Of a stretch of DNA of 64,000 bases, positions 35,536-40,319 are shown in pieces. The first letter of the stretch is position 1; the number at the start of each line of letters is the position of its first letter. Position numbers and translations under genes: made by a program. The stretch lies in IMG/VR virus record IMGVR_UViG_3300045988_171958, positions 96,001 to 160,000 of that record. One strand, 5' to 3'. The notes under the pieces were generated by a model. It was not told the DNA's origin, ran no database searches, and worked only from the letters and a program-made list of their open reading frames with translations. This stretch comes from a virus.

Positions 35536-36735
35536 ATGAAGAAATTATCAGAATTTGTTGTAGAAGCTAAGTCACTTGATGTACAGAATGATACTTTGGA
35601 TTTTATTCCATCTGCTAAGCTTAAGACATATCTTACCGCTGCAGACAAGTTCATTTCTGTTGAGGCAAAGGAAATCATCAATTGGTTGATTGTAAACAAT
35701 GCTACATATATGAAGGAGATTGGTTCTCTTCAAAATTTCTATGGTAAGGGTAAGCCAAAAGATCCTAAGATGCAAGAGTTGTACAAGTGGATTGGAACAC
35801 TTGCTAAAGCACATCGTCTTCTTGAGGTACCAGTATTCCAGACTGAAGAGCAATTCAGTGCAATTATCAAAAATGAGATTTCACCAGATGAGATATTGCT
35901 TGATTTGAAGACAAAGAAAGGTCGTGATGCTGTGGCTAAGAAATATACTCCATTGGTTTGGAAGATTGCTCGTGGATTCAATGGAAAGTCTAGCTTCTCT
36001 CTTGATGATTTGTTTGCTTTTGGTATGGAAGGTCTTACCATTGCAATGAATCAATATGGTAAATCTTCTGAAGAGACCGCTAAGAAACGTGGTGGAAAGA
36101 ATGCTGAAGCAGAAGAGATGGCTGGAGAATTGAAAGATGAAATGAAGAAGCGTAAGGCATTCACTTTCTTGAGTTATGCTAGCTATTTGATTCGTATTGT
36201 AATCCTTGAAAATATCAAGAATGCTTCACACTTAGTACGTATTCCGGTTTCTGTTCAGAATAGGGAACGTAAAGATACAGGTAGAAATACAAAACAGACT
36301 TCAGTATCTGGTGAGTCACCTATCGGTGGTGGAGATGAAGGTAAGGGAATCTTTGATAAAGTTGATTCTAAAGAAGATGCAGATGCTTCACTCGACCAGC
36401 AAGATATTGCTAAGCTTTGGAAGATGATTGTTAAGATGCTTGAGAAGAAATTTACTGAAAAGCAGCTTGATGTATTCTATAGTATGAATGGATTGTTTGG
36501 TCATGAAAAGCTTAAAGCAAAGCAGATTATGGCTAAGTATGGTATGAAGAATCCATCAGAAGTTACTAATTCTAATTTCAAAGTTCTTCAGTATGTTAAG
36601 AATACTCCAGAGTTGAAGAAAGCATTTGCTGAGTTGTATTCTCTCTATAAAGAATGTTTGAATGATGAAGATCAGAGAAATGCCGACCCATCAGTATTTC
36701 GTATAAATGACAATGATACTGCATATCGTGAGTAA
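35536..36735 (+). CDS. sigma-70-family RNA polymerase sigma factor with MKKLSEFVVE leader
   Basis: Region 2.1-2.2 LVWKIARGF...DLFAFGMEGLTIAMNQY. Region 2.3-2.4 FTFLSYASYLIRIVILENIKN. HLVRIPVSV. Region 4 FTEKQLDVFYSMNGL...KAKQIMAKYGMK..SEVTNSNFKVLQYVKN. Confidence 0.8.
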   Translation: MKKLSEFVVEAKSLDVQNDTLDFIPSAKLKTYLTAADKFISVEAKEIINWLIVNNATYMKEIGSLQNFYGKGKPKDPKMQELYKWIGTLAKAHRLLEVPVFQTEEQFSAIIKNEISPDEILLDLKTKKGRDAVAKKYTPLVWKIARGFNGKSSFSLDDLFAFGMEGLTIAMNQYGKSSEETAKKRGGKNAEAEEMAGELKDEMKKRKAFTFLSYASYLIRIVILENIKNASHLVRIPVSVQNRERKDTGRNTKQTSVSGESPIGGGDEGKGIFDKVDSKEDADASLDQQDIAKLWKMIVKMLEKKFTEKQLDVFYSMNGLFGHEKLKAKQIMAKYGMKNPSEVTNSNFKVLQYVKNTPELKKAFAELYSLYKECLNDEDQRNADPSVFRINDNDTAYRE

Positions 36736-36736
36736 G

Positions 36737-37117
36737 ATGAAAAGCCTATCTGAATATATGAATGCATTGCTTGAAAGCAGTATTGAACGATATTCAATCA
36801 AGATTACTCTCAAGCAATTCATTGACAAATATGTGGAATTATCTAAGTTGTCAAGAACCAAAGCAATATCAGAATTAGTATCTAATCTGAATATGTACAG
36901 TGATGGCGGACCTAATAAAGAAGATTGGATTACTTCAAGTCAAAGCAAAGAAATTTCATTTGATGCTTATACAGAAACAATAAGTGGAAAAGAATATCTG
37001 TATATAGAAATTCATGATTCTAGTTATGATACTATGAAGGTTGCATTCAACATTAAAAAAGTTGACTTTGCAGAACAGTTGTATGATTGGTTCAAAAATA
37101 CTGGTAGAAAGCAATGA
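36737..37117 (+). CDS. hypothetical protein with MKSLSEYMNALLE leader
   Basis: ATG at 36737 lies 1 nt after the sigma stop. The track start at 36707 overlaps the sigma gene. Confidence 0.65.
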   Translation: MKSLSEYMNALLESSIERYSIKITLKQFIDKYVELSKLSRTKAISELVSNLNMYSDGGPNKEDWITSSQSKEISFDAYTETISGKEYLYIEIHDSSYDTMKVAFNIKKVDFAEQLYDWFKNTGRKQ

Positions 37118-37422
37118 TTAATCTTAAGAGCTATGTAGTCATGAAAGAAGAATTGGATGGTGATAACATTCAATGGAAATTCAACAATTGGTCTAAAGGA
37201 ATAGAATCATCTGTATTGGACGCATTTATGTTAGATGCGTCCTATCAAAAAGATATAGATAGTTTTAAGAAACTGGTAGATGACAGTGGTATCAACTTCA
37301 ATGCATTGACTGATGTAATGAATGATGATGCAAAAGGATTGCCAGACAACTATGACAATATCTATGTTCTTAAGAAAATAATAGACACTATAAATATATT
37401 AAATAAAGGAAAAAATGATTAG
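37114..37422 (+). CDS. hypothetical protein (weak leader variant MINLKSYVV)
   Basis: 102-aa ORF with 4-nt overlaps on both sides. Confidence 0.6.
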   Translation: MINLKSYVVMKEELDGDNIQWKFNNWSKGIESSVLDAFMLDASYQKDIDSFKKLVDDSGINFNALTDVMNDDAKGLPDNYDNIYVLKKIIDTINILNKGKND

Positions 37423-38110
37423 TATTTCAGAATACTTGAACGAAAATCTTGATGAATTCGTTTTTGAGTTGAAAAGCCAAACATATTTGAATGCTGCTAA
37501 GAAAGCAAAGAAACTTGGTGATCCACGAGCAGAAAAGTTCTTGCAAGCATTTAAAGACAATATTGATAAAGAATTGATGGCTACAGAAGGTCCAGATGAT
37601 GAAGAAAAGAAATTCAACATCTATTATAATGCTGATAAGAAATCTATTATTAGACTTAAGTCTCTTGATAAGAGAGAAAATGGAAATGGACCATTATTGG
37701 AACAAACTAACAGAGGAACTTATTTCGACATACGAAATGATGACATTGAATTTATTGCGAATGTTTATGTTGCATCCAATAAAGATGGAGATAGACAAAT
37801 CTTCTTACGTCAATCTATCATAACTCAAGATAAATGGAAATATGTATCAAAAGAATTCAATAGAGTTGCTGAAAAAATAAATGATTCAGAATCAAAGAAG
37901 CCATTTACTTTTGTTAAGATGTTTACAAATACTGGTACTGTGGAATTTTTCTATATTATAGATACAGATAAGTTAATTCCCATATTCTTAAATCATGGTA
38001 AAGGCAATAAGTATGAAGATGATGAGTGCTTAGATAATTATTCAGAAAATGATAAAACTGCTATCAATGCTATCTGTAAAGCAATGAATCAAAATCATAA
38101 GGATATATAA
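37415..38110 (+). CDS. hypothetical protein with MISISEYLNE leader
   Basis: 231-aa ORF. Confidence 0.7.
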   Translation: MISISEYLNENLDEFVFELKSQTYLNAAKKAKKLGDPRAEKFLQAFKDNIDKELMATEGPDDEEKKFNIYYNADKKSIIRLKSLDKRENGNGPLLEQTNRGTYFDIRNDDIEFIANVYVASNKDGDRQIFLRQSIITQDKWKYVSKEFNRVAEKINDSESKKPFTFVKMFTNTGTVEFFYIIDTDKLIPIFLNHGKGNKYEDDECLDNYSENDKTAINAICKAMNQNHKDI

Positions 38111-38731: not shown

Positions 38732-38766
38732 CTATATTTATAATGTTTAGTATTTAAAATAATAAA

Positions 38767-39546
38767 ATGAATAAGAAGAAAATAACAAAGTACATTTATA
38801 TTGGATTATTTGCCGCATTGTACCTTAGTGTTGCTTTAGTTTCTGGTATACATGCTGTTGCATTTTTCAGTTTAGCTAATGCTCCAGCTTTAGGTGTTAT
38901 GCTTGCTATAACTTTTGAAATTGGTCAAGCAGCAGTATTGTTTAGTTTGCTTACTAATCCAAATCAAAGAAAGAAAATCATGACTTGGGTTCAACTTTCG
39001 ATTTTTACACTTGTACAAATCCTTGGTAATGTTTATTCGTCATATAAATACATTGTTTCTAATTCTATGGAAAACTTAAGGTTTTTCAAAGAACCAGTAT
39101 TTATTTGGACAGACTTGCCGGACCAGATGTGTAATGTAATTATAACATATCTCGTGGGCGGAATTCTCCCAATTTCTGCACTTTTGCTTACAGAGATGTT
39201 GACAAGTTACTTATATAAGGAAGAGGATAAAGTACCAGAACCTACAAAACAAGAAGAAATAAAAGAAGATAAGAAAGAAGAACCAGAACCAGAACCAGAA
39301 CCAGAACCAGAACATAAGATAGAAAATGAGCAAGTACAAGAACAAACCAATCAAGAGGAAGAGGCTATCAAGGAAGATGGACGAATTTGCGAGAGAGATA
39401 ATAGTGGGAGCAAAGAACCTGAAGGAGTTGTCAATGAGACAGATGAAGGCGACACTGAGGATTTGACAAAAGAAGAAGCAGAACCAGAAGTTACTGAACC
39501 AGAAATATCTAAACCTAATCTTAAGTCACAATTCTTAAATATTTAA
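38767..39546 (+). CDS. multi-pass membrane protein with acidic Glu/Pro-rich tail
   Basis: About 4 hydrophobic helices in the first 150 aa, then EEPEPEPEPEPEH and an E/K/T-rich tail. Confidence 0.7.
   Translation: MNKKKITKYIYIGLFAALYLSVALVSGIHAVAFFSLANAPALGVMLAITFEIGQAAVLFSLLTNPNQRKKIMTWVQLSIFTLVQILGNVYSSYKYIVSNSMENLRFFKEPVFIWTDLPDQMCNVIITYLVGGILPISALLLTEMLTSYLYKEEDKVPEPTKQEEIKEDKKEEPEPEPEPEPEHKIENEQVQEQTNQEEEAIKEDGRICERDNSGSKEPEGVVNETDEGDTEDLTKEEAEPEVTEPEISKPNLKSQFLNI
39280..39312 (+). repeat. hexanucleotide tandem repeat (GAACCA)x5
   Basis: gaaccagaaccagaaccagaaccagaacca encodes (EP)n within 38767..39546. Confidence 0.85.
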
Positions 39547-39584
39547 TTTAAAGTATTTTTAATTAACGAAATACAAAAAAAATA

Positions 39585-40319
39585 ATGGAATCATTAACAA
39601 ATTTTATAAATGAAGCTCTAAGCAAATCTGAATTCATGGATATCATCGATAAATATGATGATGCTAGAAAGTTGGATAATTTGGATAGTTATTATGATGA
39701 TTTAATAATTGGGTTTAGCCGTAGAGAGGAAATAAATAATGTTGTTGTAAAGTCAATTGGTAAAGGCCCATACTATGTTGTTGGTATGGATAATTGGGCT
39801 GACTTATTTGATAAAAAGGGTATCACCAATATTCTTAAAAAAGCAGGTATTACTAGATTACCACATTGGGTAAAAAATGTAAATGATAGAAGTGAAGAAA
39901 CAACATACGGTTTTGTCGATACTACAAAAATAAATGATTATTATCATACTACTGGAGATAATATGGCATGGAAAAAACATGAAATTAAAAATGCCCTTGA
40001 AACAAATAAGAAGTTAAAAGAACTTGGTCTAACTAAGGAATTGGATGATAAGCTTAAGCAAATGACAAGTGCTTTTGATTTTAAACCAATTAAGCTTGAA
40101 AGAGATGTAAGAGCTAGTAGAGCAGCAGCTGCTAGAAAAGATGTATGGGGTCATTATTATGGTGGCGGTACAGGTAAACTTGATATTGTACCAAATATCT
40201 TATTAATTAATGGAAAATTAATTAAGATTCTTACTATGGGTGTAGAAGGTAATGCAGGAAGTGCAGGTATATATACTTTGATTATTCCGGCAAGTGAAAT
40301 TGAGAATATCAAAGATTAA
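39585..40319 (+). CDS. hypothetical protein with MESLTNFINE leader
   Basis: 244-aa ORF. Confidence 0.7.
   Translation: MESLTNFINEALSKSEFMDIIDKYDDARKLDNLDSYYDDLIIGFSRREEINNVVVKSIGKGPYYVVGMDNWADLFDKKGITNILKKAGITRLPHWVKNVNDRSEETTYGFVDTTKINDYYHTTGDNMAWKKHEIKNALETNKKLKELGLTKELDDKLKQMTSAFDFKPIKLERDVRASRAAAARKDVWGHYYGGGTGKLDIVPNILLINGKLIKILTMGVEGNAGSAGIYTLIIPASEIENIKD

Follow-up and report, generated by a model that had tools for sequence, protein, structure and literature searches.

Background

Why do many otherwise dissimilar proteins of a single phage begin with nearly the same ten residues? The question is raised by a 64,000-nt stretch of virus DNA (positions 96,001 to 160,000 of IMG/VR record IMGVR_UViG_3300045988_171958; the whole stretch is referred to as the window), in which a cluster of genes at positions 35536 to 40319, and further genes elsewhere, encode a common N-terminal leader peptide of the type M-K-x-L-x-[EN]-[FY]-h-x-E, where h is hydrophobic. 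A first-pass annotation of the window had likened this leader to the capsid-targeting sequence (CTS) of the internal proteins (IPs) of phage T4. Sequence comparison indicates that the tag is real, occurs across the phage clade and closely resembles the T4 CTS, and the leader is probably a T4-type capsid-targeting propeptide that is removed by a prohead protease. The mechanism is already known from T4; what is new is the distant lineage, the scale and the nature of the cargo.

Leader peptide in the window

All eleven N-termini quoted in the first-pass annotation were found in place and, variants included, the leader heads 11 of the 87 open reading frames (ORFs) of the window, or about one gene in eight (~12 %). 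A strict regular expression run against the six-frame translation of the window gave six matches, every one of them directly behind a start methionine. A position-specific scoring matrix (PSSM) was trained on leaders from other contigs only, with those of the window excluded from training, and 391 internal methionine positions served as the control set. Eight window ORFs scored 7.8 to 23.5 bits and two length variants, at 36737 and 37114, scored 3.2 and 2.5 bits, against 0.8 bits for the best control, so that ten of the 87 ORFs lie above all controls. The ORF at 30687 scored -2.6 because its leader is one residue shorter, and no additional ORF among the 87 rose above -6. By the same measure the tag stands on no tail, neck, shell or replication protein within the window. 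A hydrophobic-x-Glu ending had been claimed for every member, and [VLIM]-x-E is present in 11 of 11, at residues 7 to 13.

The leader genes are spread over at least four regions of the window and over both strands. Their bodies had been described as unrelated, a description that all-versus-all BLASTP upheld overall and contradicted for one pair, the products of 30687 and 31167, which are paralogues (41 % over 39 aa, E 2e-8). The cargo consists of a sigma factor, a nucleoside diphosphate kinase (NDK), a DUF3175 protein and eight small proteins without assigned function. The three annotations held (NDK, Pfam 3.8e-20; DUF3175, 1e-6; sigma factor, PHROG 351 at 4e-11, with PF04542 in homologues and sigma-A/sigma-S matches in Foldseek), and no other leader protein was recognised by Pfam or PHROGs. 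The bodies are 71 to 389 aa long, have isoelectric points (pI) of 4.3 to 9.0 and include enzymes. Leu is encoded by TTA, CTA or CTT and Ser by AGC, AGT, TCA or TCT, in agreement with the earlier remark that conservation is at the level of the peptide and not of a copied DNA module.

Comparison with T4 and other phages

The CTS of T4, MKTYQEFIAE, as given in the first-pass annotation, was confirmed in the literature and in the T4 genome (NC_000866), in which IPII and IPIII begin MKTYQEFIAE|A, IPI begins MKTFKEF...ITE|A (MKTFKEFTS..) and gp24 begins MAKINELLRE|S; gp23 is cut after LTE65. According to papers on the T4 CTS, the diverse internal proteins have nothing else conserved in common; the CTS directs foreign proteins, too, to the scaffolding core and is cut off by gp21. 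The leader of the window sigma factor, MKKLSEFVVE|A, has M1, K2, E6, F7, [IV]8, E10 and A11 in common with it. Against the T4 consensus M-K-T-[YF]-x-E-F-[IT]-x-E, the window leaders replace [YF]4 by [LI]4 and have E/N6, F/Y7, I/V8 and E10. In both systems an N-terminal peptide of about ten residues, with a hydrophobic-x-Glu end followed by Ala or Ser, is the sole feature common to unrelated proteins, and the gene content is very variable between relatives; a protease of the gp21 family and a capsid protein of the gp23 family are also encoded in the lineage of the window.

The two systems differ in several respects. There are 11 tagged genes in 64 kb here, and up to 13 of 18 genes in relatives, versus three in T4. 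The cargo here comprises enzymes, among them NDK, as well as a full sigma factor, and only part of it is basic. The tagged genes neighbour either the sigma gene or the genes of the protease and major capsid protein, whereas those of T4 lie near the lysozyme gene (e) and tRNA genes. A repeat-rich, scaffold-like domain is fused to the protease, a gut Bacteroidota is the probable host, and packaging here is a prediction. Contrary to the first-pass annotation, the cargo is not IP-like: the small, highly basic, DNA-associated type of cargo seen in IPI to IPIII, a feature that describes the T4 internal proteins and not the targeting mechanism, was not found, and the bodies include enzymes.

The huge myophages phiKZ, 201phi2-1 and SPN3US also have a T4-type protease and many head-internal proteins processed C-terminal to Glu. 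Their gp21-like proteases cut head, inner-body and ejection propeptides at [S/A/G]-x-E, and the SPN3US paralogues gp53 and gp54 have identical N-termini (PMC5694885). In contrast to the leader described here, their propeptides are mostly 80 to 130 residues long and have no single common decapeptide (PMC5694885); their P3 residue is small (A/S/G) and that of the leader hydrophobic, and their processing was shown by mass spectrometry, whereas that of the leader is predicted from sequence. The Dar proteins of P1 and the ejection proteins of P22 are likewise head-internal, injected cargo, which in P1 shields the incoming DNA from restriction, but they are incorporated via protein hierarchies (DarA/Hdf) or scaffold interactions, without a short common N-terminal tag. 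A literature search found no paper in which huge phages of the gut, or a sigma factor, are connected with a CTS.

Source of the window and its relatives

The window sequence is part of NCBI contig CACVDK010000001.1 (GCA_902729945.1; 293,853 bp), with window base 1 at about base 156,653 of the contig. Identical sequence is present in human-gut metagenome assemblies, and the phage, with a genome of ~294 kb, is uncultured. The window has a GC content of ~30 %, and a Shine-Dalgarno (SD)-like tetramer precedes only 4 of its 87 genes. By capsid protein identity the closest cultured relatives are Sphingomonas phage PAU (38 %) and Chryseobacterium phages MA9V-1/2 (34 %), followed by Tenacibaculum phage pT24 (33 %) and the Prevotella Lak phages (30 %). 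The host is likely to be a gut Bacteroidota, since these are the nearest cultured relatives by capsid protein, and the SD-less genes make the same assignment probable. Neither blastn with the main leader cluster nor tblastn with the window sigma factor gave any match among 50,697 phage records. Loci and contigs of relatives are labelled with L numbers, L017 being the downstream flank of the window.

Leader conservation among relatives

The clade consensus is M-K-[SND]-[IL]-x-[ENQ]-[YF]-I-x-E-[SKA]. A relaxed form of the motif is N-terminal in 91 of 790 distinct clade ORFs (11.5 %) versus 0.15 % per internal position, a ~77-fold difference, and heads 4 of 687 ORFs of more distant gp21-bearing phage loci; together with the separation of leaders from internal methionines by the PSSM, these counts bear out the view that the motif marks a genuine N-terminal family. 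A degenerate DNA scan of IMG/VR returned 54 loci; leader ORFs are present in ~33 of them, where as many as 13 of 18 ORFs carry the tag. In the outgroups L058-L107, LR756500 and Lak-C1, the surroundings of the capsid genes contained no arrays matching the regular expression. Near the capsid gene of Prevotella phage Lak-C1 (L164) there is a family of paralogues beginning MNKLIKRLIE|SLFDD, MNKLIRKLLE|N and MNKQIKQLLE|N (7606-8814; 39411-40457 and 40541-41590, these two on the minus strand), which from their N-termini may be the Lak counterpart of the leader.

The leader persists while the sequence behind it changes. Nearly all of the 120 sigma homologues listed (95 to 41 % identity) begin MKKLSQ[IV][IV]xEAK, and the NDK homologues, 120 of 120 and down to ~50 % identity, all have the leader, then a spacer of 4 to 10 residues that varies in both length and sequence, and then the core NGF[AC]ILKPEFL. 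Sequence alignments and structure models together indicate that the tag is modular, with a shared leader, a variable flexible spacer and unrelated bodies. In relatives with a sigma factor 40 to 43 % identical to that of the window (L011, L012, L014), the sigma gene is followed by ~12 to 24 small genes, nearly all of which begin MK[DNS]I..[YF]I.E[SA], and in L010, L013 and L015 by a single leader gene; the span of 1 to about 20 leader genes behind sigma matches the earlier description of the locus as hyperplastic. Tagged cargo in relatives includes DUF285 proteins, and tagged N-termini there include the NMN-adenylyltransferase (NMNAT)-like GGKFQPFHKGH and the P-loop-kinase-like GLPGSGKST.

Such a pattern could arise at the level of RNA if, in a host that makes no use of SD sequences, the start region of these genes were under selection to be A/U-rich and unstructured or to serve as the operator of a RegA-like translational repressor, with the peptide as a by-product. 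The scarcity of SD-like tetramers (4 of 87 genes) fits this explanation, as do the codons at positions 2 (AAA), 4 (TTA) and 8 (ATA) of the 91 distinct clade leaders, which are A/T-richer than background, and some RNA-level selection at the 5' end of leader genes is indicated by this codon bias. As the main cause it is nevertheless highly unlikely. Both Ser codon families, TCN and AGY, are in use, as are TTA, CTA and CTT for Leu; codon use at E10, S11 and I4 over the 91 leaders equals the genomic background; the residues follow an amino-acid periodicity with an invariant final Glu; the pattern survives 50-60 % protein divergence in the sigma and NDK families; and 88 % of the genes in the same SD-less genome lack it. 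Because Ser draws on both codon families and the codons at E10, S11 and I4 match background, selection acts mainly on the peptide, in addition to the usual A/T-rich bias of 5' ends.

The leaders could instead be relics of tandem duplication, derived from one ancestor, with 5' ends kept alike by gene conversion and without a common function. Arrays of small neighbouring genes, the paralogy of 30687 and 31167, and sub-families with extended N-terminal similarity (for example ...YIxEKLHLNK) speak for such an origin. The tag is, however, found on the unrelated NDK, sigma-70, DUF3175 and DUF285 families and on NMNAT-like N-termini, its genes are dispersed over the window on both strands, and their synonymous divergence speaks against recent conversion. 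The unrelated folds largely refute this origin, which is scarcely credible as an explanation for the whole family, and both it and an RNA-level cause fit the data less well.

Prohead protease, capsid protein and linkage to head genes

A gp21-type protease had been predicted elsewhere in the genome. It is absent from the window and its 10-kb flanks; Pfam, run on nearly all other window proteins, detected no head genes, and none turned up when the window and the first loci were searched by tblastn with T4 gp20-gp24. A walk that started at a relative's sheath gene led to the protease, and a gene with a gp21-like N-terminal domain was found in 12 of 12 loci, just upstream of the gp23-type capsid gene and the sheath gene. 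In Pfam, clade proteins scored 36.5 and 37 bits for Peptidase_S77 (cut-off 27 bits) and 104-110 bits for Gp23 (PF07068). A profile of ten clade proteases matches the T4 gp21 structure 5JBL, with the catalytic His (GELEHPN) and Ser (SSRG) kept. The same protease gene lies on four IMG/VR contigs (L043, L044, L051, L052) whose sigma genes are 96-98 % identical to that of the window, again beside a gp23-type capsid gene, and the prediction was thus borne out on these contigs.

The protein encoded by L051:9995-11572 (525 aa), from a contig whose sigma gene is 98 % identical to that of the window, consists of a protease domain, a coiled coil and about nine tandem VQKW[IV]VEQYSPE repeats, each containing a hydrophobic-x-E site. 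From this architecture it looks like a protease-scaffold fusion, with repeats as expected of a digested scaffold. At about residue 42 the capsid proteins of the clade share the motif HE[IV][HY]E|[SA]xLG, behind which comes a linker rich in Gly, Ala and Pro. The [IV]-x-E|[SA] site of this motif is the same as the ending of the leader; from the shared site we infer that the capsid protein is cleaved by the same protease.

Arrays of three to nine leader genes stand directly upstream of the protease and capsid genes in L021, L022, L023/L056, L030, L036, L038, L050 and L055. In MA9V-2, a cultured phage, the gene directly upstream of the protease gene is MA9V2_208 (MKTFTYFINE|A); MA9V2_205 of the head module begins MKNFFSFINE|A, MA9V2_237 begins MSNYINE|A, and the capsid protein contains ...WSEFINE|AAPKG. 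The same head-module motif is present in the cultured relatives MA9V-1/2, and probably in pT24, PTm1 and PAU. On virion proteins, the MA9V-1 paper offers SDS-PAGE only, and the MA9V-2 paper was found to contain no mass spectrometry.

A papain-like Peptidase_C1 protein in the window (28056-28676, minus strand; 206 aa, 35 bits), located between neck-region genes and a NUDIX gene, was considered as the processing enzyme and set aside once the gp21-type protease, whose site preference fits, had been identified.

A T4-like marine contig (L103:1875-2392, IMGVR_UViG_3300046008_000347) encodes two small basic proteins directly before a gp21 homologue, with the N-termini MKSIYSLITE|A and MKSIYSLILE|A; they are CTS-type internal proteins outside the T-evens.

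Promoter-like motifs

Two classes of promoter, E-type and L-type, were defined by sequence motif only. The L-type motif, (T)TTATTTTTAAT, also written TTTATTTTTAAT, usually lies 22-44 nt before the ATG and precedes the protease, capsid, sheath and tube genes of relatives and the tail-fibre-like genes of the window. Among clade genes with their own upstream region, it was found before 53 of 62 head/tail core genes (85 %), 11 of 27 leader genes (41 %) and 60 of 334 other genes (18 %), and the difference between leader and other genes corresponds to an odds ratio of 3.1 (p 0.009). The E-type motif was found before 0 of 62, 3 of 27 and 57 of 334 genes of these groups, respectively. Gene order ties the leader genes to the head module, with which they also have a promoter motif in common.

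The first-pass annotation had cautioned that the main cluster sits behind an early-type promoter. An E-type motif, TTGAAATTT-N11-TTCTATATT, was indeed matched by regular expression before the sigma gene (35414..35441, plus strand), with a degenerate L-like motif, CTCTATTTTTATCTAA, upstream of it in tandem (35355..35370, plus strand); the next E-type copy, at 40368-40395, heads the following operon, and the window has 18 E-type matches (17 on the plus and 1 on the minus strand). L-type motifs stand 31 nt upstream of gene 39585 (GTATTTTTAATTAAC, 39553..39567, plus strand) and 30 nt upstream of gene 30687 (30655-30670), and a canonical one precedes a leader gene in the downstream flank (L017:18370). 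The sigma genes of L009, L010, L011, L013 and L015 are preceded by canonical L and E motifs arranged in tandem. The caution is weakened by the enrichment of the L motif before leader genes, by its presence before 39585 and 30687 and by the tandem arrangement in relatives, and it remains for the main cluster.

The E-type motifs belong to a wider set of 13-18 conserved promoter-like cassettes, TTTGAAATTT-N11-TTCTATATT, between window positions 1646 and 62820, in which similarity extends up to 65 nt. Examples start at 1647, 3836, 27019, 29179, 29916, 35414, 40368 and 41370, and further ones at 49482, 50703, 51761, 55403, 58041, 60433 and 62775; those at 29916, 51761 and 58041 have an identical core within a 159-nt repeat. 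A 21-nt poly(T) tract (55363-55383) lies immediately upstream of two tandem E-type motifs.

A second sigma-70-family gene without the leader (L017:12666-13919; 417 aa, PF04542 weak) lies ~2.7-3.9 kb beyond the end of the window and is preceded by a motif resembling the E-type, an arrangement that hints at a sigma cascade.

Proposed function of the leader

Every sequence-level prediction of the first-pass annotation came out favourably, and by analogy with T4 we infer targeting, cleavage, packaging and injection of the tagged proteins. In this mechanism the leader would be a short amphipathic helix, M-K-[SNDK]-[IL]-x-[ENQ]-[YF]-[IV]-x-E, joined by a flexible spacer of variable length to unrelated cargo. 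During head assembly the tag would draw the cargo into the scaffolding core of the prohead, where the gp21-type serine protease, fused to its repeat-rich scaffold-like domain, would cut behind the Glu of hydrophobic-x-E; the mature cargo would remain in the capsid with the DNA and enter the next host cell with it. The virion would thereby bring a large set of proteins into the host.

Several observations weigh against this mechanism. A tag on ~12 % of the ORFs implies a very large internal proteome, the bodies (pI 4.3-9.0) are not basic as in the T4 internal proteins, and the tagged NDK, sigma, NMNAT-like and P-loop-kinase-like proteins belong to normally cytoplasmic, non-virion classes. The residue directly after the leader Glu (P1'), which over the 91 clade leaders is Ser in 27 and Ala in 16, is Lys in 24, and the codons of K2, L4 and I8 are A/T-richer than background, as described above. 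In the window's own lineage no leader gene lies beside the protease gene, the L motif is missing before 59 % of the leader genes that have an upstream region of their own, and the main cluster has an E-type motif, of a class found before none of the 62 head/tail core genes, with only a degenerate L-like one upstream.

Some of these points would be expected of a docking or sorting tag unrelated to the capsid, which would gather enzymes (NDK, kinases, NMNAT, sigma) on a phage scaffold or factory, or of a tag that marks proteins for recognition or degradation, so that a protease or chaperone removes them at a set time, the likeness to the T4 CTS being convergence on a short amphipathic helix with acidic residues. 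The enzyme-rich, non-basic cargo, the tagged NMNAT-like and P-loop-kinase-like N-termini of relatives, the E-type motif of the main cluster and the tagging of ~12 % of ORFs would all agree with it. It leaves unexplained the hydrophobic-x-E|[SA] ending common to the leaders, the capsid propeptide site and the MA9V-2 head-module proteins, the recurrent arrays directly upstream of the protease and capsid genes, and the enrichment of the structural-class promoter motif; moreover, 6 of 10 positions agree exactly with the T4 CTS, and the lineage has gp13, gp14, gp18, gp21, gp23 and UvsW of T4 type. A tag of this kind, in either form, is unlikely. Two other explanations were dismissed: an import signal for a phage nucleus, as the phage carries sigma factors and T4-type genes and lacks the features of chimalliviruses, and a signal peptide of Sec or lipoprotein type, as a hydrophobic core is missing from the leader.

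Under the capsid-targeting mechanism the tagged sigma factor raises a further idea. T4 Alt, an ADP-ribosyltransferase that is packaged and cleaved by gp21, and the virion RNA polymerases of N4 and phiKZ are transcription-redirecting proteins that are made late, packaged and injected, and a CTS-tagged sigma factor, its packaging predicted from the tag, would suit the same logic. We know of no packaged sigma factor. That the sigma factor and the adjoining tagged 203-aa protein are made late, packaged and injected, as parts of a clade-wide injected 'ejectome' of dozens of proteins, is a tentative and rather doubtful proposal. If true, the host core RNA polymerase would be reprogrammed upon genome entry, and a sigma factor delivered by the virion would be a solution to early transcription not described before; the ejectome would include enzymes of nucleotide and NAD metabolism and fast-evolving small proteins, possibly anti-defence, and would be readable from the genome via the tag.

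If the tag works as in T4, it provides a sequence-only marker of the predicted injected proteome in a widespread clade of human-gut huge phages. The T4 CTS, known from a handful of T-even internal proteins, would be extended to a distant lineage, with a far larger and more varied cargo that includes a sigma factor, NDK and enzymes of NAD and nucleotide metabolism. The fast-changing arrays would be a source of candidate anti-defence proteins, and the leader a possible portable packaging tag for engineering Bacteroidota phages; it also assists the assignment of start codons in genomes without SD sites.

Genes of the main cluster

The cluster opens with the sigma gene (35536..36735, plus strand; 399 aa, leader MKKLSEFVVE|A), which sequence homology and structural modelling place in the sigma-70 family, with the signature and fold of sigma regions 2-4. 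Pfam gave no match to the window protein itself at E 0.01; its homologues P0081, P0086 and P0096 have PF04542. The top 50 Foldseek matches of its AlphaFold2 (AF2) model are all sigma factors (sigma-A/sigma-S) in RNA polymerase complexes (E 5e-6), and in the model the leader (residues 1-11) forms a detached helix with a predicted local distance difference test (pLDDT) score below 50. The next gene (36737..37117, plus strand; 126 aa) has the leader MKSLSEYMNALLE|S, three residues longer; its longest ORF starts at 36707 and the leader Met is at 36737, 2 nt past the sigma stop codon. It is followed by the gene of a 102-aa protein with the weak variant MINLKSYVVMKE|E (37114..37422, plus strand), whose orthologue in L009 begins MSTINLRAYVALKEQ, and by that of a 231-aa protein with the leader MISISEYLNE|N (37415..38110, plus strand; 16.5 bits). 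Neither the 126-aa nor the 231-aa protein matched a Pfam or PHROG family.

The 203-aa protein (38120..38731, plus strand; MKQLVEYMKE|S) is by synteny a conserved partner of the sigma gene, and its orthologue lies between the sigma and membrane-protein genes in L009-L015. An alignment of its family has the conserved leader, a variable spacer of 0-36 aa and a conserved body. Its AF2 model is confident (pLDDT 82.7), with a low-confidence leader helix at residues 2-14 and a disordered linker at 14-23, and had no meaningful fold match in PDB or BFVD. The membrane protein that follows (38767..39546, plus strand; 259 aa) has an acidic tail and no leader; it stands outside the leader family and is a conserved member of the sigma locus in L009-L015. 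The last gene (39585..40319, plus strand; 244 aa, MESLTNFINE|A, 15.1 bits) has no counterpart in the L009 locus.

Leader genes elsewhere in the window

The gene at 6702..7142 (minus strand; 146 aa, MKSLTNYICE|A) is assigned to NDK by its match to PF00334 (3.8e-20); the domain covers residues 19-136 and is preceded by leader and spacer. The adjacent gene (7147..7662, minus strand) encodes a 171-aa protein with the leader MKSLTNYIYE|S (23.1 bits), of which likely counterparts with the leader, matched by size and N-terminal sequence only, are present in L014 and L050. The DUF3175-like protein (31443..31688, minus strand; 81 aa, MKKLSEFVNE|K) had a Pfam E-value of 1e-6 and a PSSM score of 15.8 bits. 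The paralogous pair, both on the plus strand, consists of an 82-aa protein with the leader MKSLNEFLIKE|E (31167..31415) and an 83-aa protein with the shortened leader MKTLVEILE|G (30687..30938), the latter with the L-type motif upstream.

Other features of the window

Other window genes encode a T4-like UvsW, gp13-like and gp14-like neck proteins, a dNMP kinase, an RNA ligase, RtcB, a NUDIX protein and a split family-B polymerase. Genes of RNA-repair type are dispersed over the window, all without the leader: the RNA ligase (4841-5836), a HAD_SAK_2 phosphatase (2822-3502) and RtcB (56673-57980), with the NUDIX hydrolase at 29270-29833. Rfam and tRNA scans of the whole window found nothing.

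Two DUF7487 paralogues (12252-13244, minus strand; 17363-18319, plus strand) lie on either side of the gene of a 1217-aa DEAD-box helicase, and their cysteine-rich N-termini suggest homing-endonuclease-like proteins; another DUF7487 copy is inserted beside the sigma locus in the relative L002. A GC-richer intergenic repeat of ~100 nt (GCGCCTGGGTCACACAGGGAGCGG...CCCTGTGTGA) occurs at 29080-29178, 41030-41128, 56270-56367 (inverted) and 13373-13412 (partial); it matched no Rfam family and is predicted to fold into a long stem around two small hairpins (-29 kcal/mol, z = -2.7). Neighbouring genes at 59907-60161 and 60174-60428 encode 84-aa paralogues beginning MEFLVSYKV.. and MKFLVSYKV.., which are identical at 50 of 85 aligned positions, stop included.

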